Assembly: GCA_964641245.1 (NCBI GenBank)
Contig: CAZXML010000006.1
Span: forward strand, 1 to 60,354
Reading direction: 5' to 3'
From: an uncultured Gammaproteobacteria bacterium
GTDB lineage: Bacteria; Patescibacteriota; Patescibacteriia; Magasanikbacterales; GWA2-37-8
Length of the DNA: 60,354 nucleotides
The notes beneath the pieces were generated by a model, which saw only the letters and a program-made list of their open reading frames with translations, was not told the DNA's origin and did not search any database. The position numbers and the translations under genes were made by a program. Of the stretch, positions 1 through 60,354 are shown piece after piece (position 1 is the first letter of the stretch; the number at the start of each line of letters is the position of its first letter).

Positions 1-3000
1 GACAAATTCTGCTTATAAAATCAACGGTACAAATGTCATCATTGCCCAACCAGCATTATCTAACTTCTTTTTCGGTAATTCAGGTAATTTGACGATGACG
101 GGGACCTATAACACCGCTATGGGTTATAATGCGCTCCTCAGCAACACCACCGGAAACACTAATTCCGCTATGGGTTTACAAGCGCTCTACAGCAACACCA
201 TCGGAACCCATAACACCGCTATGGGTTATAATGCGCTCCTCAGCAACACCACGGGGATCCATAATACCGCCATGGGTGTGAACGCGCTCTACGACCTCAA
301 TATCCTTGTTGGGACAGGAGCCAATACTGCCCTTGGCTATAACACCGGCAGAGGAATTATTACGGGTGTCAACAACACTATTATCGGAGCCAATGTTACA
401 GGGCTTACCTCCACACTTTCCAATAACATTATCATTGCGGACGGTGCCGGAAACCAAAGAATAAATATAGACGCAAACGGCTACGTTAGTTTCGGCACTA
501 CCACCCCCGTTGCTCAATTTTCTATCCAAGGGTTCGCCTCCAGCAGTCCTATTTTTGATGTAGCTTCATCATCTGGCGCAAGCCTTTTGCGCGTCCTCGC
601 CAACGGCAACATTGGCATCAATTCCTCCACTCCAATCGACACCCTCGCTGTTCAAGGCGGATTGCAAGTAGTAGGCGGAGTTACTTCCACAAATCTATAT
701 GTCTCCGGCATCACCAATCTTGGGGTCACTACTGTCTCTACACTCACTGCCACAAATGTTACCTCCACCAACGTTTCCAGTACCAATAGTTATTCCAATT
801 CATATACCGGTACTTGGAATGGAAACCTGCTTTCAATTACAGTCGGCGGCACCAACAGTTCCACCATTGGCCCGGCCGGCTCTGTCGCATATTCTAACGC
901 CAGCAGTTACTTGTTTACCGCCGCCGGTACAGCCGGACAAATTTTGCAGGCCAATGGCACCGGCGCTCCTACTTGGATAAATACCAGCACCATGGGATTT
1001 GTTAATCTGCAGGGCGTTACGTCCGGTACGCAACAAATTGGAAATTTTAATATTTCTGGTACAGGTCTTGTAGGTACGTCATTTGGTGTTAATACTACCA
1101 GCCCAATCGCTTCTTTGGCGGTGCAGGGAATTGGTGGAACTAACCCTTTTAGTATTAATTCCTCAACCGGAGCTTCTCTACTGGTTATTTTGCAAAACGG
1201 CAATGTTGGTATTGGAACTTCAACTCCCGCTTTCAAGATGGATGTTGCTGGAGATGTCAATATCACGACAAATTCTGCTTATAAAATCAACGGTACAAAT
1301 GTCATCATTGCCCAACCAGCACTAAGTAACTTCTTTTTCGGTAATTCAGGTAATTTGACGATGACGGGGAGCTATAACACCGCTATGGGTTCGCAAGCGC
1401 TCTACAGTAACACCGACGGAAGCAATAACACCGCTATGGGTGTACAAGCGCTCTTAAACAACACCACCGGAAGCGAAAACACCGCTTCGGGTATGTACGC
1501 GCTCTTAAACAACACCACCGGAAACTATAACACCGCTATGGGTATGTTCGCGCTCTTCGACTTCAATACCCTTGATGGGACAGGATCCAATACTGCCCTT
1601 GGCTATAACACCGGCAGAGGAATTTCTACAGGTGTCAACAACACCATTATCGGAGCCAATGTTACAGGGCTTGCCTCCGCACTTTCCAATAACATTATCA
1701 TTGCGGATGGTGCCGGAAACCAAAGAATAAATATAAACGCAAACGGCTACGCTAGTTTTGGCACTACCACCCCCGTTGCTCAATTTTCTATCCAAGGGTT
1801 CGCCTCCAGCAGTCCTATTTTTGATGTAGCTTCATCTTCTCTTTCCAGTTTATTTAGAATTTTAGCTAATGGTAATGTGGGTATCGGGACATCTTCTCCA
1901 AGCACCGCTCTGGCAGTAAATGGAACTTCTACGATGAATGGTTTACAAATTACAAACTTAGGGAGCGCGGCAGTACCCGCGATTGCGATAGGTACGGCCA
2001 CAGATGGTTTTTACCAACGAACCGCAACCACTTTGAATATAACTACTAATGGCGCGATAACTGCTGAATTTTATAATGGTGGACTCGCAAATAATCTTAT
2101 TTACACAGGCATTATCTCTAACGGTACTACTGCTGGGAGTAGTGCTGGGGGGCAAATAGACTTTGATGGTTCGGGAATGATTATGGGACTTACAACTGTT
2201 CCAACAATTCTGGCAATCAGAAATAAAACCGTATCTATCAACACCACATCCGTTTCCGCTTCGTTAATGGTTCAAAGCGCTCCCGGAGCCGTTCCGTTTT
2301 CGGTTGTTTCTTCTAGCGTTACCGAAACTTCAATGTTTAAAATATTATCAAATGGCAATGTGGGTGTTAATACTACCAGCCCAATCGCTTCTTTGGCGGT
2401 GCAGGGAATTGGTGGAACTAACCCTTTTAGTATTAATTCCTCAACCGGAGCTTCTCTACTGGTTATTTTGCAAAACGGCAATGTTGGTATTGGAACTTCA
2501 ACTCCCGCTTTCAAGATGGATGTTGCTGGAGATGTCAATATCACGACAAATTCTGCTTATAAAATCAACGGTACAAATGTCATCATTGCCCAACCAGAAT
2601 TAAGTAACTTCTTTTTCGGTAATTCAGGTAATTTGACGATGACGGGCGGCTATAACACCGCCTCGGGTTACCAAGCGCTCAACAGCAACACCGCCGGAAC
2701 CGATAACACCGCTATGGGTATGCAAGCGCTCTACAGCAACACCATCGGAAACTATAACACCGCTATGGGTGAGGCTGCGCTTTACAACAACACCACCGGA
2801 GACCAAAACACCGCCTCGGGTGCGTATGCGCTCTACAGCAACACCACCGGATTCTATAACACCGCCTTGGGCATGTACACGCTCCTCAACCTCAATATCC
2901 TTAATGAGACAGGAGCCAATACTGCCATTGGCTATAACACCGGAGGAGGAATTATTACAGGTGTCAACAACACCATTATCGGAGCCAATGTTACAGGGCT

Positions 3001-3230
3001 TGCCTCCGCACTTTCCAATAACATTATCATTGCGGATGGTGCCGGAAACCAAAGAATAAATATAAACGCAAACGGCTACGCTAGTTTCGGCACTACCACC
3101 CCCGTTGCTCAATTTTCTATTCAAGGGTTCGCCTCCAGCAGTCCTATTTTTAATGTAGCTTCATCTTCTCTTTCCAGTTTATTTAGAATTTTAGCTAATG
3201 GCAATGTTGGTATAGGATCTTCCACTCCTG
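1..3230 (+). repeat. Long in-frame tandem duplication inside the fibre gene: units 1-1266 and 1267-2544, plus a partial third unit from 2545 to about 3230.
   Basis: gacaaattctgcttataaaatcaacggtacaaatgtcatcattgcccaacc recurs at positions 1, 1267 and 2545. The stretch ~1083-1322 is essentially identical to ~2360-2600, as shown by identical frame-shifted ORF translations in the track (1083..1325 versus 2304..2603). Confidence 0.9.
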
Positions 3231-5260
3231 GCTTTAATTTTGTAGCTGTCGGATCTGTTTCTCTTCCTACCATTCCAGCCTTGGCCCGAAATTCCGATCT
3301 ACTTTGTTGGGATACTGTAACCGGTACTTTAAGCCACCAGGCAACCACATGTACAATTTCATCTGCTTGGTTTAAAGAAAATATTAAGAGCTTATCTTCG
3401 GAGAAATTGATGGAAGAGGTCAGACAATTAAGAGCTGTTAGTTTTGATTATAAATCTGATGGCCAAACAAGCGAGGGTTTTATTGCGGAAGAAGTGGCTT
3501 TAATAGATCCAATGTTGGTTGTTTATACTTCTGACTATACCAATGAAAGATTTGATTGGGTTCAAAAAAATTATCCGAACTCAATTCTATACAAAGACGG
3601 CAAAACTTTAATCCCCCAAACAGTGGATTATTCTCGAGTATCGGTTCTCCTTACCGGCGCGCTTCAAGACATAAATGCCAGACTGGCGGTTTATGCTTCT
3701 TCAACAGAAGTAATGTCTTCGGTTTTGAATATTAATACTACTAACAACACTATTGCAGTCGGCACTTCTACCAATCCATATAACCTTGTTGTCACAGGCA
3801 ATATTTCTTTGAGTGGTACGAATGTAGTGAATAAACTCTCCTTCGCCACCTCCACTTTATTTGAATCAAACGTAGCCAGTTTTTCCGGAGCCCGCGCCTT
3901 TATTTTAAACGCGCCTAATTTTACCGGCGCTTCGGCTGATAATTATATTATTTCTCTGCGGGCAAACAACAATCCGGTTTTCTCGGTGGCGGCCAGCGGC
4001 GATGTGCATGCATTCGGAAATTATTATGGCGCCAGCGCTGTTTTGGGCACTTCCACCAACCCTGGAGATTTGGCCGAGCGGGTAGATGTGGCTGTGGATG
4101 ATACGGTGGAACCTGGCGATGTGATGGTGGTAGATAAAAACGCGCCCGACACTTATCGTCGCAGTGGCTCGGCCTACGAACAATCCGTCGCCGGTATCAT
4201 CTCCACCAATCCTACTATTATCGTCGGCAACGGCAAAACCGAATACACTGCCGTAATGGCCATGGTTGGCCGCGTACCGGTAAAAGTTTCCAATGAAAAT
4301 GGAAATATTCAAAGAGGCGATTTATTGATTACCGCTTCCACGACCGGTTTTGCTATGAAGTATGATCCGGCTAAAGACAACAACAATAAAATGGTGGCTG
4401 TGATTGGTGTGGCCTTGGAGTCATTTGACGGCGGGATGTCGCCAACCCACCCCTACCCCGCCCAAGCGGGGAATACCACTACAGGAAAAATTTTGACTCT
4501 TATCAGAACCGGTTGGATATATAACCGCGATCAGGCGATAAATAATTTAGAAGATAATATTAAACAAATGGCTGTGGCGCAAGGAATAAATTTGTCTTCC
4601 GCCAGCGAAGCCAGCAATTTAAATATTCAGGACACTAGCGGACAACTGTCTTATACCGGCGGTATTCTTGATTTACAAAATAATTCCTTAATTAATGTAG
4701 CCGGTATAATGGGTAGAGATAATAAATGGAGAATTGACGAATCCGGTAATTTAATCCAAAAAATTGCCACGGCTAATGGCGATAAAGAAACCTATAGTCT
4801 GCAAAGCTCCGGCAAACAGGAGATTGTAATTTCCGGCACCAGTACATTGGAAAACGGAACTATAAAAGTCATTTTAGGCGATTTGGACCAGGCTATTATT
4901 GACAAAACAGTTCCATTAAGAATTCAAATTACCATGTCCGGTGAAACCAAGGGAGTGTATGTGTCCGAAAGGAATTTTGACAGCTTTGTGGTGAAAGAAA
5001 ATGAAAATGGACAGAGCAACGCTTCGTTTGACTGGACAGTCATCGCTAAAATTTTGCCGCCGGATTTGACTTCTGCCACCACAAATTCAGGCCAGGCCAA
5101 TAATGGCAGCGCGCCAACCGATGTTGTTACTATGATTCCTGATGCGGTCTTGTCAGCCAATACTTCTTCATCAATAAGTGATGTTACTTCCACGACGGTT
5201 ATTGATACGGGAGTTTCTTCTACGATTGATATTAGTTCCAGCACGCTCGTCACGCGGTAG
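2..5260 (+). CDS. Giant secreted fibre/adhesin-like protein with its 5' end outside the window. It has three ~425-aa modules of YadA-head/Hep_Hag-like NTAxG repeats, an internal Peptidase_S74-like intramolecular chaperone domain, and a ~525-aa C-terminal extension.
   Basis: Frame 2 is open from base 2. It reads TNSAYKINGTNVIIAQPALSNFFFGNSGNL, the same peptide as at the module junctions near 1267 and 2545, so the TTG at 89 in the ORF track is not the real start. Dozens of NTA[MS]G-xx-AL-xx-NT[TI]G heptad-like repeats are present. Stop codon is TAG at 5258-5260. Confidence 0.8.
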   Translation, partial: TNSAYKINGTNVIIAQPALSNFFFGNSGNLTMTGTYNTAMGYNALLSNTTGNTNSAMGLQALYSNTIGTHNTAMGYNALLSNTTGIHNTAMGVNALYDLNILVGTGANTALGYNTGRGIITGVNNTIIGANVTGLTSTLSNNIIIADGAGNQRINIDANGYVSFGTTTPVAQFSIQGFASSSPIFDVASSSGASLLRVLANGNIGINSSTPIDTLAVQGGLQVVGGVTSTNLYVSGITNLGVTTVSTLTATNVTSTNVSSTNSYSNSYTGTWNGNLLSITVGGTNSSTIGPAGSVAYSNASSYLFTAAGTAGQILQANGTGAPTWINTSTMGFVNLQGVTSGTQQIGNFNISGTGLVGTSFGVNTTSPIASLAVQGIGGTNPFSINSSTGASLLVILQNGNVGIGTSTPAFKMDVAGDVNITTNSAYKINGTNVIIAQPALSNFFFGNSGNLTMTGSYNTAMGSQALYSNTDGSNNTAMGVQALLNNTTGSENTASGMYALLNNTTGNYNTAMGMFALFDFNTLDGTGSNTALGYNTGRGISTGVNNTIIGANVTGLASALSNNIIIADGAGNQRININANGYASFGTTTPVAQFSIQGFASSSPIFDVASSSLSSLFRILANGNVGIGTSSPSTALAVNGTSTMNGLQITNLGSAAVPAIAIGTATDGFYQRTATTLNITTNGAITAEFYNGGLANNLIYTGIISNGTTAGSSAGGQIDFDGSGMIMGLTTVPTILAIRNKTVSINTTSVSASLMVQSAPGAVPFSVVSSSVTETSMFKILSNGNVGVNTTSPIASLAVQGIGGTNPFSINSSTGASLLVILQNGNVGIGTSTPAFKMDVAGDVNITTNSAYKINGTNVIIAQPELSNFFFGNSGNLTMTGGYNTASGYQALNSNTAGTDNTAMGMQALYSNTIGNYNTAMGEAALYNNTTGDQNTASGAYALYSNTTGFYNTALGMYTLLNLNILNETGANTAIGYNTGGGIITGVNNTIIGANVTGLASALSNNIIIADGAGNQRININANGYASFGTTTPVAQFSIQGFASSSPIFNVASSSLSSLFRILANGNVGIGSSTPGFNFVAVGSVSLPTIPALARNSDLLCWDTVTGTLSHQATTCTISSAWFKENIKSLSSEKLMEEVRQLRAVSFDYKSDGQTSEGFIAEEVALIDPMLVVYTSDYTNERFDWVQKNYPNSILYKDGKTLIPQTVDYSRVSVLLTGALQDINARLAVYASSTEVMSSVLNINTTNNTIAVGTSTNPYNLVVTGNISLSGTNVVNKLSFATSTLFESNVASFSGARAFILNAPNFTGASADNYIISLRANNNPVFSVAASGDVHAFGNYYGASAVLGTSTNPGDLAERVDVAVDDTVEPGDVMVVDKNAPDTYRRSGSAYEQSVAGIISTNPTIIVGNGKTEYTAVMAMVGRVPVKVSNENGNIQRGDLLITASTTGFAMKYDPAKDNNNKMVAVIGVALESFDGGMSPTHPYPAQAGNTTTGKILTLIRTGWIYNRDQAINNLEDNIKQMAVAQGINLSSASEASNLNIQDTSGQLSYTGGILDLQNNSLINVAGIMGRDNKWRIDESGNLIQKIATANGDKETYSLQSSGKQEIVISGTSTLENGTIKVILGDLDQAIIDKTVPLRIQITMSGETKGVYVSERNFDSFVVKENENGQSNASFDWTVIAKILPPDLTSATTNSGQANNGSAPTDVVTMIPDAVLSANTSSSISDVTSTTVIDTGVSSTIDISSSTLVTR
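3359..3685 (+). other. Peptidase_S74-like intramolecular chaperone / autoprocessing domain (tail-fibre and endosialidase type) embedded in the fibre protein.
   Basis: SSAWFKENIKSL...LRAVSFDYKSD...EGFIAEEVALIDPMLVV...QTVDYSRVSVLLTGALQDINARL matches the remembered S74 pattern: S-D-x-R-L-K-x-N-I ... GfIAqEv ... vdY..l..l...aiqeL. Confidence 0.6.
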
Positions 5261-5275
5261 AGATTTCGGTATTAT

Positions 5276-8200
5276 ATGACTTCACAACTAAAAAAAACAA
5301 TTTTGCTTGTCGTTGTTATTTGTAGCAGTTTTTTTTATTTATTTTTTCATCAAATTGATTCTATCCATGCGGCCAATGCAAATCAGGGAGTAACTGTTAA
5401 TTTGACCGTACCGGTTCCTGGCAGTACTGGCGGCGGCGGTACCGGCGGGGGCCCGGGAGGATCTGATGTGCCACCAGTAATTTTTGCTCTGGATTCCTTT
5501 GTTTCTTTTACCACGGCGACTGTAAGTTGGTCTGCCACTGATGATCTTGGCGTTGTCGCTTCAAGTTTTGTTTATGGGCCAACGATTAGTTATGGTAATT
5601 CCGGATTAGTAACCGGAAGCTATAAGGTTGATTTGCTCGGTCTGGCCACCGGCACTTTGTATTATTTTAAAATTTTGGCTATTGATACCGGTTCGCATAC
5701 CACTGAATATACCGGAACTTTTTCTACTTCACCGCCTCCGGCCGATACCGCCCCCCCGCTTATAAGCAACATTCAAGTGACTGCGGGCATAACCGCCGCC
5801 ACAATAACATGGGATACAAATGAATTAGCGGATAGCCAGATAAATTACGGTTTAACAAACTCCTATGGCAGTAATTATTTTGATGTAGAGGGAAAATTAA
5901 CGCATAGCGTTCTTTTATTTAATTTAACACCCAACACAACTTATCATTTTCAAATTATTTCCACCGACAGTTCCGGTAACAGCGGCAATACGCCAGATGC
6001 GACTTTTACCACTCAAGCTGACAGTGTGGCGCCTCCGGATGTTTCCGGCTTTCTTTTAACAACCACTACCAATTCTATTGTTTTGTCATGGACCAATCCT
6101 AGTTTAGCTGGAACCATAGACTTTAACTTAGTAAAAGTTCTCAGAAAAGTCGGGACACCATCGGTAAGCCCCGTTGATGGCACAGTGGTTTATACAGGCG
6201 CCGGAGAAAATTTTACAGATTTTAGTGTAGCAGTAAACACAGATTATTTTTATACAATTTTTTCTTTTGATACATCCGGAAATTATAGTCCGGGTATTTT
6301 TAGAAATGGAAAAATTTTACCGAGCCCCATTCCCGGACCTTTTGAAATTTGTGATAATGGATTGGATGATAACGGCAATGGCAGTGTAGATTGCGCGGAT
6401 ATTGCCTGCGTAAGTTTTCCGGCGTGTATTATTGTTCCCCCTCCCACTTCCACACCACCCGCGCCGGTTCCGGAGATTTGTAATAATGGAAATGATGATG
6501 ATTTAAACGGACAAATTGATTGCGCCGACAGCGCTTGTTCCGGCTATGTTGGCTGTCTGTCCCTTTCGACTGTCGCCGTTTGTAATAACGGGCTGGATGA
6601 TGATGGTGATGGAATAATTGATTATCCGGCCGACCCCGGATGTAGTAGCGCGGAAGATACCGATGAATATAATCCGCCCGAACCAACTATTCCGCCATTT
6701 GCCCAAATATATTTTAATGACCTGATATTTTTAGCCGGTAATCGCCAAATCAAGCTAGAGCCGTTGGAAAATATAATAACGGGATTATCCGGGGCTAATT
6801 TTTCATTGGTAGTTCCGGAAAATATTTTGGCAAGCGCGCCACGGACAATGATTTTAAGGGTAGGCGGGACGGATCAACACCAGTTTGTTTTTAATACAAC
6901 AGACAGAAAATATTATGCAGATCTTTCTTTTTTTGGCGTAGGTGAGTCACAGGCGTATTTGGAAATTGATTATGGTTCCGGTCAGCTGGATTCCGTGGGT
7001 TTTAAATTAAACAGTTTACCGTGGGGCCAAGTGGTTGATGAAGACGGCAAAGCTATTCCGGACGCTGAAATCACTCTTTTGGAAACCGACGGATCAGCGG
7101 CGCAGATGGGAAATTATGGCCAGTTAAATCCAATATTATCCGATGCCAACGGAAGTTTTGGCTGGATGGTGCTTAATGGCGATTTCAAAATTACCATATA
7201 TAAGGAAGGTTACTATAACCGTTCCTTTACCCTAAGCAATATTAGTAATCACGTAGTTAACGCAAAATTTGTTTTAATCACGCGGCCAATCAAGCTGGAT
7301 TTAACAGACACTCCGGCAAATATTATTAAAGCCTTAGGCTCGCAAACTAAAATCTTATCCAATATAGTTGTTCAGAAAGTGCAGGATGCCGTTACTAATC
7401 CGGAAGTGCAACAAGCAAACCAACAGATTGTGGCGCCGGCTACAATTACGGTGGTGTCCATTGGCGCGATAACATTAATTTCATGGTTGGATTTTCTGCC
7501 ACTTTTGCGGCTGTTGTTTCTGCAGCCGCTTATGCTTCTGGGCTGGAGAAAAAGAGAAAAATGGGGTTTGGTGTATAACTCTTTAAATAAATTACCAATC
7601 GATTTAGCAACTGTACGTTTAATCAGCCTGGAAACAAACAGAGTAATACAATCAAAAGTTACGGACACAAAAGGCCGGTTCTTATTTATGGTGGATCAGG
7701 GGAAATATAGGCTGGAAGTGCAAAAAAACAGTTTTATTTTCCCGTCCAAATTTTTGGAAGGATATAAAAGCGACGGCCAGAAAGTTGATATTTATCATAA
7801 TGAACCAATTGAAGTTCTTAAGCCGGCTAGCATTACAGCTAATGTGCCGCTTGATCCGGTGGGCGCGCAGAAAAAACCCTTACGTTTGGTTTTGGAAAAG
7901 TTTGGCCGAAAATTGCAGGTGGTGCTTTCTTGGATTGGTATTATTGTTACCGCCGCTTCCTTATATATATCCCCCAAATGGTACATTGTCGCTTTGCTGG
8001 TTTTACATATTGTGTTATTCCTTATCTTCCGCAGGTTGGCAGTGCCGCCCAAACCAAAAAATTGGGGTATTGTTTATGATGACACCAACAAAGCGCCGGT
8101 GGGCAGAGTGGTGGCCAGATTATTTAATTCCCAATTTAATAAGCTTGTAGATACGCAAATTACGGATAGTAGCGGTAAATATTATTTTATGGCTGGTGAT

Positions 8201-8320
8201 GGCAAGTATTATGTAACGTATGAACACAAGGAGTATCATCCAGAGAAAACGGATATTATTGATTTAGCAGGGAAAGATGCCGAAGTTATTACGGTTGATG
8301 TTAAATTAAAGAAGAATTAA
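5276..8320 (+). CDS. Large cell-surface/membrane protein: signal anchor, three Fn3-like domains, three Cys/Asp-rich CxNGxDDDxNGxxDCxDxxC modules, carboxypeptidase-regulatory-like beta domains, and internal TM segments.
   Basis: The N-terminal hydrophobic segment is KKTILLVVVICSSFFYLFF. Fn3-like blocks include VSWSATDD...YYFKILA and TWDTNELADSQINYG...TYHFQIIS. EICDNGLDDNGNGSVDCADIAC, EICNNGNDDDLNGQIDCADSAC and AVCNNGLDDDGDGIIDYPADPGC are present. TDTKGRFLFMVDQGKYRLEV and TDSSGKYYFMAGDGKYYVTY are also present. Confidence 0.65.
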   Translation: MTSQLKKTILLVVVICSSFFYLFFHQIDSIHAANANQGVTVNLTVPVPGSTGGGGTGGGPGGSDVPPVIFALDSFVSFTTATVSWSATDDLGVVASSFVYGPTISYGNSGLVTGSYKVDLLGLATGTLYYFKILAIDTGSHTTEYTGTFSTSPPPADTAPPLISNIQVTAGITAATITWDTNELADSQINYGLTNSYGSNYFDVEGKLTHSVLLFNLTPNTTYHFQIISTDSSGNSGNTPDATFTTQADSVAPPDVSGFLLTTTTNSIVLSWTNPSLAGTIDFNLVKVLRKVGTPSVSPVDGTVVYTGAGENFTDFSVAVNTDYFYTIFSFDTSGNYSPGIFRNGKILPSPIPGPFEICDNGLDDNGNGSVDCADIACVSFPACIIVPPPTSTPPAPVPEICNNGNDDDLNGQIDCADSACSGYVGCLSLSTVAVCNNGLDDDGDGIIDYPADPGCSSAEDTDEYNPPEPTIPPFAQIYFNDLIFLAGNRQIKLEPLENIITGLSGANFSLVVPENILASAPRTMILRVGGTDQHQFVFNTTDRKYYADLSFFGVGESQAYLEIDYGSGQLDSVGFKLNSLPWGQVVDEDGKAIPDAEITLLETDGSAAQMGNYGQLNPILSDANGSFGWMVLNGDFKITIYKEGYYNRSFTLSNISNHVVNAKFVLITRPIKLDLTDTPANIIKALGSQTKILSNIVVQKVQDAVTNPEVQQANQQIVAPATITVVSIGAITLISWLDFLPLLRLLFLQPLMLLGWRKREKWGLVYNSLNKLPIDLATVRLISLETNRVIQSKVTDTKGRFLFMVDQGKYRLEVQKNSFIFPSKFLEGYKSDGQKVDIYHNEPIEVLKPASITANVPLDPVGAQKKPLRLVLEKFGRKLQVVLSWIGIIVTAASLYISPKWYIVALLVLHIVLFLIFRRLAVPPKPKNWGIVYDDTNKAPVGRVVARLFNSQFNKLVDTQITDSSGKYYFMAGDGKYYVTYEHKEYHPEKTDIIDLAGKDAEVITVDVKLKKN

Positions 8321-51706: not shown

Positions 51707-51777
51707 CCAGGAAAGCTCGGCACCTGTAATTCCCCGCTTGGGCGGGGTAGGGGCGGGTTGGTAGGTGTCCATTAGTC

Positions 51778-60270: not shown

Positions 60271-60354
60271 TCTATCCACATTTTATCCCCGCCCGTAGCC
60301 CTGAATAAGATGACATACATCGTAGACACTTTTACCCCGCCAAAAGGATGCCGT

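Follow-up and report, generated by a model that had tools for sequence, protein, structure and literature searches.

The stretch of DNA analysed here, referred to as the window, comprises 60,354 nucleotides (nt) and is the whole of contig C6 (GenBank CAZXML010000006.1) of a 13-contig draft genome of ca. 0.95 Mb. It opens inside one of the largest genes of this genome, a forward-strand frame (2-5260) that is still open at the 5' edge and holds 1752 codons plus a stop (5258-5260). Probably it represents the 3' five-sixths of a gene on the chromosome of a bacterium of the candidate phyla radiation (CPR, i.e., Patescibacteria), and the product would be a surface fibre that is secreted, trimeric and similar to the tail fibres of phages. 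From the N-terminus onwards, the protein would consist of a signal peptide, an N-terminal domain (N-domain) and a beta-helical shaft with (N)GNVGIGTxxP motifs and three head/neck cassettes, followed by a Peptidase_S74 (S74) domain, a short stub, a divergent Peptidase_G2-type (G2) chaperone, a beta-sandwich and a Ser/Thr-rich tail (Table 1). Its distinctive traits are the internal S74 domain with a probable G2-like autochaperone behind it and the conserved ends that enclose a recombining middle; otherwise it is an ordinary repeat-rich fibre or adhesin gene at a contig edge.

Gene start and assembly break

Within the window the earliest listed in-frame start is a TTG at 89, which is formal only. 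Most contig ends of this assembly are joined by exact 55-nt overlaps (C1/C4, C3/C4, C7/C10, C2/C12 and others), and these are de Bruijn graph links, i.e., the k-mer overlap of the assembler. At the window edge, the first 55 nt are identical to C6:1267-1321, and the final 55 nt of contig C9 recur as window 728-782; window 1-1266 forms a cycle of the assembly graph, with C9 leading into it at 728. In the frame of the window, the end of C9 holds a 218-codon open frame that begins MEEPCRRERAKNKLPILLIFGLVLFFVFVGIFSRKAIAATAPS... and encodes a signal sequence of the Sec type and, behind it, a conserved N-domain of ca. 140 amino acids (aa) that is rich in beta structure. The same N-domain heads giant open reading frames (ORFs) in 31 of 41 related genomes. 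Four congeners have the locus uninterrupted (giant ORFs of 3815 aa in G012, 3015 aa in G001, 3506 aa in G010 and 2260 aa in G015), and in each of them the order is that of the three genes found upstream on C9, the giant ORF with both the N-domain and a conserved C-terminal block, the 1014-aa neighbour that also follows the gene in the window, and ychF. The C9 overlap and this gene order in congeners together indicate that the fibre gene starts on C9. As the join predicts, the 'GTWNG...GGTN' (GGTN) domain that begins near window 728 stands directly behind the N-domain in G012, G001, G010 and G008 (the G008 orthologue being truncated by a contig end). The minimal product has 197 + 161 + 1753 codons, i.e., 2,111 aa, and each further turn of the cycle adds 422 aa.

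A preliminary description of the window, made from its sequence, had taken the frame to be open from base 2 and truncated by the edge, with a product longer than 1723 aa, and both statements hold, given the 1752 codons in the window and the N-terminus on C9. The same location excludes the start near base 89 that it had named as the refuting case, and the end of C9, with its signal peptide and N-domain, supplies the upstream contig it had asked for. Its warning that assemblies of this region are error-prone proved apt as well: the contig is broken here by the internal repeats of the fibre gene, and in most of 15 congeneric drafts contig ends truncate the orthologue, or it lies in fragments or holds a run of N. 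The practical outcome is a corrected gene model that joins C9 to C6, and a caution that the length and module content of such fibre genes in metagenome-assembled genomes are untrustworthy without long reads.

Conserved ends and an exchanged middle

The best database matches to the whole protein cover only aa 1242-1690, at 65-82% identity, and their middles are otherwise different, consisting mostly of LVIVD propellers. At least 23 proteins with this conserved C-terminal block also carry the N-domain of C9. In their middle, the congeneric orthologues (loci L018-L025) have LVIVD beta-propeller units, from one to several of them, and not a single NTAxG head cassette, and only G010 among the four complete orthologues has an S74 domain ahead of the conserved block. 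From one species of the genus to another the gene has an entirely different middle, a far larger change than one in copy number. By sequence comparison, both ends of the fibre are conserved and the middle is exchanged, across species as well as among paralogues within the genus. Near-identical strains were also sought for polymorphism in module number and none were found, the best metagenome match being 71% identical.

Probable C-terminal folding modules

Pfam recognises in the window protein a Peptidase_S74 domain (PF13884, aa 1120-1173; 29.2 bits with the whole protein and 32.4 bits with the fragment, cut-off 22) and a marginal CBM_X2, nothing else, and a search with NCBIfam gave no match. 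The S74 domain aligns over its full length to the terminal chaperone of a T5-like fibre of the L-shaped kind (8hqz_d, residues 951-1066 of 1076), with S1120-SAWF-K1125 opposite S-GIEY-K. In its above-cut-off Pfam match, whole-chaperone alignment and S-x4-K spacing it resembles the S74 fibres and spikes of phages (K1F endosialidase, T5 L-shaped tail fibre pb1), from which it departs by reading SSAWFK for SDxxxK, by the 520 aa of further sequence and by belonging to a Sec-exported cellular protein. Both SD and SS forms of the motif occur among homologues, and a paralogue on contig C4 has SSARFK. Among 31 homologues aligned over the C-terminal block (the window protein not counted), eight have an S-x4-K-x-[ND]-I motif 60-120 aa upstream of it; the order of S74 and then this block is a recurrent one. 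That sequence can continue beyond an S74-type domain has a precedent in the eukaryotic protein MyRF (myelin regulatory factor), which self-cleaves and releases its N-terminal trimer. MyRF is entirely different from the fibre in organism, topology and function, and the two are likened by description, not by sequence comparison. According to the paper that describes the mosaic adhesive trimer (MAT) fibres of Bdellovibrio (PMC10769870), MyRF contains S74 and has the capping-loop motif discussed below.

The C-terminal block of ca. 450 aa that follows has no match in the window protein to Pfam, NCBIfam, PHROG or PDB sequences; the PDB search gave nothing with the whole protein and RpoD noise with the profile of the C-domain. 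AlphaFold2 (AF2) models this block confidently only in a barrel (residues 116-265, predicted local distance difference test (pLDDT) 75-90) and in the beta-sandwich (345-445). Foldseek against PDB finds a weak resemblance to tailspike C-terminal domains and phage decoration proteins, with the phi29 gp12 chain absent from the top 50 matches. Against the predicted viral structures of BFVD it finds 82 matches at E ≤ 1e-3, with many phage proteins among them, and two of the 82 are named 'Preneck appendage protein (barrel)' (E 3e-10, target template modelling score (TMt) 0.67; E 5.5e-9, TMt 0.63). The Peptidase_G2 family (PF11962, cut-off 25), the self-cleaving intramolecular chaperone of phi29 and GA-1 appendages, is matched above its cut-off by the orthologous giant ORFs of G025 (C59, 30.4 bits), G017 (C8, 29.8 bits) and G034 (C7, 27.5 bits), and in G037 (C2) it reaches 25.4 bits when summed with neighbouring matches in frame. 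These are the same ORFs that carry the N-domain, and their segments align to window aa 1242-1690 with E values of 8.6e-61 (G025), 3e-57 (G017), 2e-28 (G034) and 1.4e-13 (G037). Opposite NPG-D1356-LAE1359-RVD of the window protein they read, in register, GDFAEFVD, GADYAEYF and GDLAEYVP. The two acidic residues, numbered D115 and E118 in alignment A1, are the same in all 18 aligned sequences, whose identity goes down to 40%, and we take such an Asp/Glu pair to be the catalytic residues of family G2.

As the window protein itself falls below Pfam detection, its assignment to G2 is transitive plus structural, and on these grounds it is likely that the conserved block is a divergent autochaperone of the phi29 gp12 type with an added beta-sandwich. 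The chaperone domain of phi29 is absent from the finished appendage (PMC9863714), and intramolecular chaperone domains aid trimerisation and then release themselves (PMC9128512). The likeness to the pre-neck appendage gp12 (PF11962, MEROPS G2) lies in a predicted C-terminal barrel that may correspond to the preneck appendage barrel models, and in orthologues that pass PF11962 in the very segment holding G-(A)-D-[YFL]-A-E. Unlike gp12, the window protein has some 200 extra residues, the beta-sandwich among them, stands behind an S74 domain and lies below the detection limit of PF11962, and its cleavage is a prediction. A tblastn search with the barrel region (window 3995-4600) against 50,697 phage records gave no match. 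With a profile of the block, 25,346 cluster representatives are retrieved at E ≤ 1e-3, of which 12,887 reach E ≤ 1e-10 and 412 reach E ≤ 1e-30; the domain is common and under-annotated, being unnamed by Pfam and NCBIfam in the fibre protein, and reading it as a divergent phi29-type autochaperone would give a widespread domain a testable function.

The block is, however, longer than a canonical G2 chaperone and has a separate, confidently modelled beta-sandwich, its PDB Foldseek matches include tailspike C-terminal domains and phage decoration proteins, and it stays 65-82% conserved between species whose middles differ. Together with the SS in place of SD in the S74 motif, this could speak for a retained functional tip (a lectin or an enzyme) or a cell-wall anchor, with S74 acting only as a trimerisation knot. 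We regard such a tip or anchor as unlikely, since the D-x-A-E motif is invariant in the 18 sequences and coincides with the PF11962-matched segment in orthologues, since conserved ends around a variable middle fit an anchor plus a folding module better, and since eight of the 31 homologues keep S-x4-K just upstream of the block.

Repeat architecture of the middle

Direct repeats start at window positions 1, 1267 and 2545. What the three units share is a head/neck cassette of ca. 575-640 nt each (75-100% identical) and, in two copies, a 182-nt connector (1085-1266 and 2363-2544, 0 differences). Within the cassettes, identity between copies is 90-98% in the pre-head (alignment columns 1-120), and 63-85% in the 17-aa repeats (period 51 nt). 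For the neck it is 88-100%, the copies differing at 10-14 of 265 nt and 6-8 of 88 aa. The spacers (ca. 610-1084 and 1876-2362) are only 33-45% identical, and module 3 consists of the head/neck part alone and is followed by a different region. Modules 1 and 2 have 5-6 NTAxG units each and module 3 has seven, i.e., one extra 51-nt unit, so that repeat number varies within cassettes too.

The preliminary description of this region stands in part. It had reported three near-identical 1.27-kb modules; there are three copies, yet they align as a mosaic with unrelated spacers and are not near-identical throughout. The first 90 nt do recur at 1267 and 2545, as it said, at 87 of 90 positions with each other copy and not exactly (from the window start the match stays exact for 55 nt with the copy at 1267 and for 53 nt with the one at 2545). 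The neck that it called conserved is so in all three copies, the stretch 1083-1322 that it equated with the second copy agrees at 237 of 240 positions with 2361-2600 (offset 1278), and the ca. eight NTAxG repeats it had counted per module are too many.

Its suggestion of recent duplication or gene conversion is strengthened by two observations. Synonymous sites are identical too in the exact repeat of 182+53 nt and in an exact run of 132 nt that necks 2 and 3 have in common, and recent gene conversion or duplication therefore fits better than selection at the protein level. The second observation involves the C4 paralogue (C4:55350-59354, a 1335-codon open frame; P0011, 1325 aa from the start codon), which has a signal peptide, the GGTN domain, LVIVD beta-propeller repeats, beta-helix connectors and a terminal S74 domain with the SSARFK motif. 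Window 845-1054 and C4:55806-56015 are identical at 208 of 210 positions, with sharp boundaries and flanks at 50-70%, and from the sequences this is evidently a typical gene-conversion tract between the two genes.

It might be objected that the tandem modules are largely an artefact of assembly, in which reads of one or two cassettes, or of strain variants, were strung together: the contig begins inside a repeat, 1-1266 closes on itself by a 55-mer, the exact repeats (182+53 nt) are longer than the k-mer and the genome is a draft in 13 contigs. We find this very unlikely. The cassettes differ by 15-37% in the part made of 17-aa repeats, module 3 has its extra unit, the downstream partners differ (spacer 1, spacer 2 and S74, respectively), and the frame is open across all junctions. 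Moreover, the estimated contamination of the genome is 0.15%, and the homologues P0107, P0101 and P0063 carry several such heads per protein.

Table 1 Features of the fibre gene in the window (positions in the window; strand + is the forward strand)
Feature	Position	Strand	Remarks
5'-truncated fibre ORF	2..5260	+	continues upstream on C9
55-nt k-mer, assembly-graph junction	1..55	+	equals 1267-1321; makes 1-1266 a cycle
Head/neck cassette 1	2..580	+	pre-head 2-103, NTAxG-x2-AL-x2-NTTG repeats 104-292, neck 310-574; PHROG virion structural/tail-spike
55-nt C9-end match	728..782	+	N-terminal part of the gene enters here
Spacer 1, 'GTWNG...GGTN...' domain	728..1084	+	contains the 845-1054 tract common to the C4 paralogue
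Connector 1, NGNVGIGTSTP-type beta-helix motif	1085..1266	+	identical to 2363-2544
Head/neck cassette 2	1267..1846	+	repeats 1370-1557, neck 1576-1840
Spacer 2	1847..2362	+	DNA unrelated to spacer 1; ca. 59% aa identity to part of the C4 paralogue
Connector 2	2363..2544	+	0 differences from 1085-1266
Head/neck cassette 3	2545..3175	+	extra 51-nt unit; repeats 2650-2871, neck 2905-3169
Peptidase_S74 intramolecular chaperone (predicted)	3323..3697	+	putative cleavage at Ser1120 (nt 3359), S-S-A-W-F-K1125-E-N-I; Pfam and 8hqz_d alignment
Beta-rich stub between chaperone domains	3725..4066	+	first part of the conserved block; low-confidence model
Putative Peptidase_G2-like (phi29 gp12-type) barrel	4067..4522	+	starts at invariant D1356-L-A-E1359 (nt 4067-4078)
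33-nt hairpin repeat	4442..4474	+	in frame in a barrel loop, encodes PTHPYPAQAGN; orthologues without the insert
C-terminal beta-sandwich	4757..5059	+	pLDDT 76-89
Ser/Thr-rich low-complexity tail	5063..5257	+	variable among orthologues

Phage-like fibres and the relatives in Bdellovibrio

In PHROG, the heads and the shaft match virion structural, tail-spike and tail-fibre families (E 8e-43 to 3.5e-7). A search of 5.8 billion proteins returned 2011 homologues which, where their source names them, are called 'tail fiber domain-containing protein', 'trimeric autotransporter adhesin' (Joint Genome Institute, JGI) or 'hypothetical protein'; among the organisms named are Patescibacteria/Magasanikbacteria, Limnobacter and Bdellovibrionales. 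Solved Bdellovibrio fibres are matched by a profile built from the head/neck, i.e., Bd2133 (8ond, E 6e-10), 8ojn (E 7e-4) and 8oml, and these matches centre on the capping-loop motif sGNvGiGTttPtakL. The AF2 monomer model of the head/neck is poor (pLDDT 59), as would be expected for an intertwined trimer, and with it Foldseek gave no match at all, YadA-like heads included.

The MAT fibres of Bdellovibrio are surface-located and phage-like. They begin with a signal peptide and a conserved N-domain of ca. 130 aa, continue as a trimeric beta-helix that meanders, and carry tips that can be swapped; one subfamily has S74 and the other does not (PMC10769870). The protein described here is a member of a widespread and already named class of phage-tail-fibre-like surface proteins, and its closest characterised relatives are these fibres of Bdellovibrio bacteriovorus (Caulton et al. 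2024, PMC10769870; 8ond, 8ojn, 8oml), a cellular, non-viral class of phage-like trimeric fibres. With them it shares a long beta-helical shaft with the VG(I/N)GxxxPxxxL capping motif and a mosaic of swappable distal modules, the subfamilies with and without S74, and the presence of several paralogues in a genome. Its layout at the N-terminus, where a conserved beta-rich N-domain comes directly after the signal peptide (on C9 and in at least 23 homologues), may correspond to theirs. It differs in belonging to a CPR lineage, in having head cassettes of 17-aa repeats, and in the position of S74, which is terminal in MATs and here internal, with the G2-like block behind it as a second chaperone. 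Furthermore, in the present fibre the C-terminus is conserved and the middle variable.

The many phage-type matches might also mean that this is the tail fibre gene of a prophage or phage remnant, and not one for a cellular surface protein: besides the PHROG families there are the S74 and phi29-like domains and the mostly-phage Foldseek matches. We reject this reading as highly improbable on account of synteny and the signal peptide, the flanking genes being cellular and their order kept in the four complete loci of the genus and the N-terminus having a Sec signal; in addition, the barrel region is without a tblastn match in the phage records, and the MAT fibres are a precedent for cellular use of such modules.

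The label of a Hep_Hag/YadA head in the preliminary description turned out to be a resemblance in motif only, because PF05658 has no match in the window protein or in any of 18 aligned heads. As in YadA/Hep_Hag heads, short Asn/Gly-rich repeats are followed by a neck and the whole is repeated along a long fibre; unlike in those, the repeat period is 17 aa and the folding modules are of phage type. A trimeric autotransporter of the YadA/Hep_Hag type, which the Asn/Thr/Gly-rich 'NTAxG..AL..NTTG' heads with their conserved neck, the precomputed PF05658 matches of some homologues and the JGI name given to some of them might suggest, is therefore rejected as hardly tenable: by Pfam there is no YadA anchor or other autotransporter domain anywhere in the fibre protein, its C-terminus is occupied by S74 and G2-like modules, and Foldseek found no YadA-like heads (albeit with a poor model). 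Patescibacteria, moreover, are not known to have an outer membrane.

Proposed assembly and role of the fibre

From the sequence architecture, homologies, synteny and repeat structure described above we infer trimerisation, cleavage, a polarity of anchoring and a role as an adhesin. The protein would be exported by Sec, and its N-domain would be a cell-proximal anchor that keeps the fibre on the surface, a role also proposed for the N-domain of MATs. The chaperone domains at the C-terminus would nucleate the trimerisation of the intertwined shaft and would then cleave themselves off, at Ser1120 and/or before Asp1356. What would be left is an N-terminally anchored fibre with an exposed variable middle, i.e., three cassettes on beta-helical spacers, that could bind a partner (host) cell. 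Conserved ends reserved for anchoring and folding would explain the free exchange of the middle as well as the confusion of the assembler by its repeats.

Several points weigh against this explanation or parts of it. The AF2 monomer models, both of the head/neck and of the C-domain, are weak (mean pLDDT 56-59). The N-domain, whose homology to the N-domain of MATs would be conjectural, belongs to no Pfam family, and a word-seeded search from a distant N-domain retrieved no Bdellovibrio protein. PF11962 has no match in the window protein even at E ≤ 10 and none in its genome at E ≤ 1, and hhalign returned no alignment between the C-domain profile and one canonical Peptidase_G2 sequence (P0112). 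In the motif S1120-S-A-W-F-K1125 the Ser/Lys spacing (S-x4-K) is kept and the consensus Asp (SDxxxK) is replaced by Ser; the S74 domain is also not terminal, ca. 520 aa following it, and with such a motif and position cleavage at S74 is not assured. The join to C9 and the copy number of the modules rest on k-mer overlaps and synteny, and the surface location and binding partner are deductions from sequence.

To our knowledge, host recognition in Patescibacteria is largely unexplained beyond type IV pili. According to a recent source (10.1101/2024.11.25.624915), a life in attachment to other microbes is common to all cultivated Patescibacteria. In an episymbiotic lineage it is plausible that such a fibre binds a host cell, and conserved ends with an exchanged middle are the pattern expected of a host-recognition fibre. 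More tentatively, and with considerable doubt, we postulate a fixed chassis, made of the N-terminal anchor and a phi29-type self-removing chaperone, between which trimer cassettes could be dropped in, and two successive self-cleavages (Ser-Lys 1120 and Asp/Glu 1356). The cassettes would be beta-propellers in most congeners, and head/neck cassettes together with a complete S74 unit in the window gene. We found no description in the literature of S74 and a G2-type chaperone in tandem. If true, such a chassis would let episymbiotic bacteria change their host specificity in a natural plug-and-play manner.

Neighbouring genes and other repeats

Upstream on C9 (33074-37090) lie three conserved genes whose synteny with the fibre gene holds in at least eight congeners. 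One encodes a polytopic membrane protein of 769 aa that has a TPR tail and, by eye, is similar to O-antigen ligases. The other two products are secreted; one (211 aa) is rich in Ser/Thr, and the other (302 aa) has a membrane helix at its C-terminus. Together with the fibre gene the three genes may form a surface-assembly cluster. Downstream, the next gene (5276-8320) starts 15 nt past the fibre stop and encodes 1014 aa with fn3, three CarboxypepD_reg-like domains and an SdrD_B-like domain. This protein adjoins the fibre gene in G012, G001, G010 and G015 as well, and it may be a partner surface protein of the fibre. Further downstream are ychF and type IV pilus genes. The neighbourhood as a whole fits a role at the cell surface.

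The barrel of the fibre contains a 33-nt element, CCAACCCACCCCTACCCCGCCCAAGCGGGGAAT (hairpin CCCCGC/GCGGGG), of which the genome has 17 copies at up to four substitutions, 12 of them exact. At the loop where the window protein has this insert, orthologues read VALESLxxSTGK. A second copy in the window lies on the minus strand at 51729-51761, and at least six others are situated deep in stop-to-stop frames of 484-931 codons, in differing frames and orientations. The behaviour of this repeat is like that of the Rickettsia palindromic elements.

At the other edge of the window, the last 55 nt (60300-60354) are common to contig C8. Many contigs of the assembly terminate in one of two inverted-repeat termini, ACGGCATCCTTTTGGCGGGGTAAAAGTGTCTACGATGTAT... 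and GCAATTCGCGGAGAAAACTATGCACTTGTCTACGATGTGG..., which are probably the ends of collapsed multi-copy insertion sequences.

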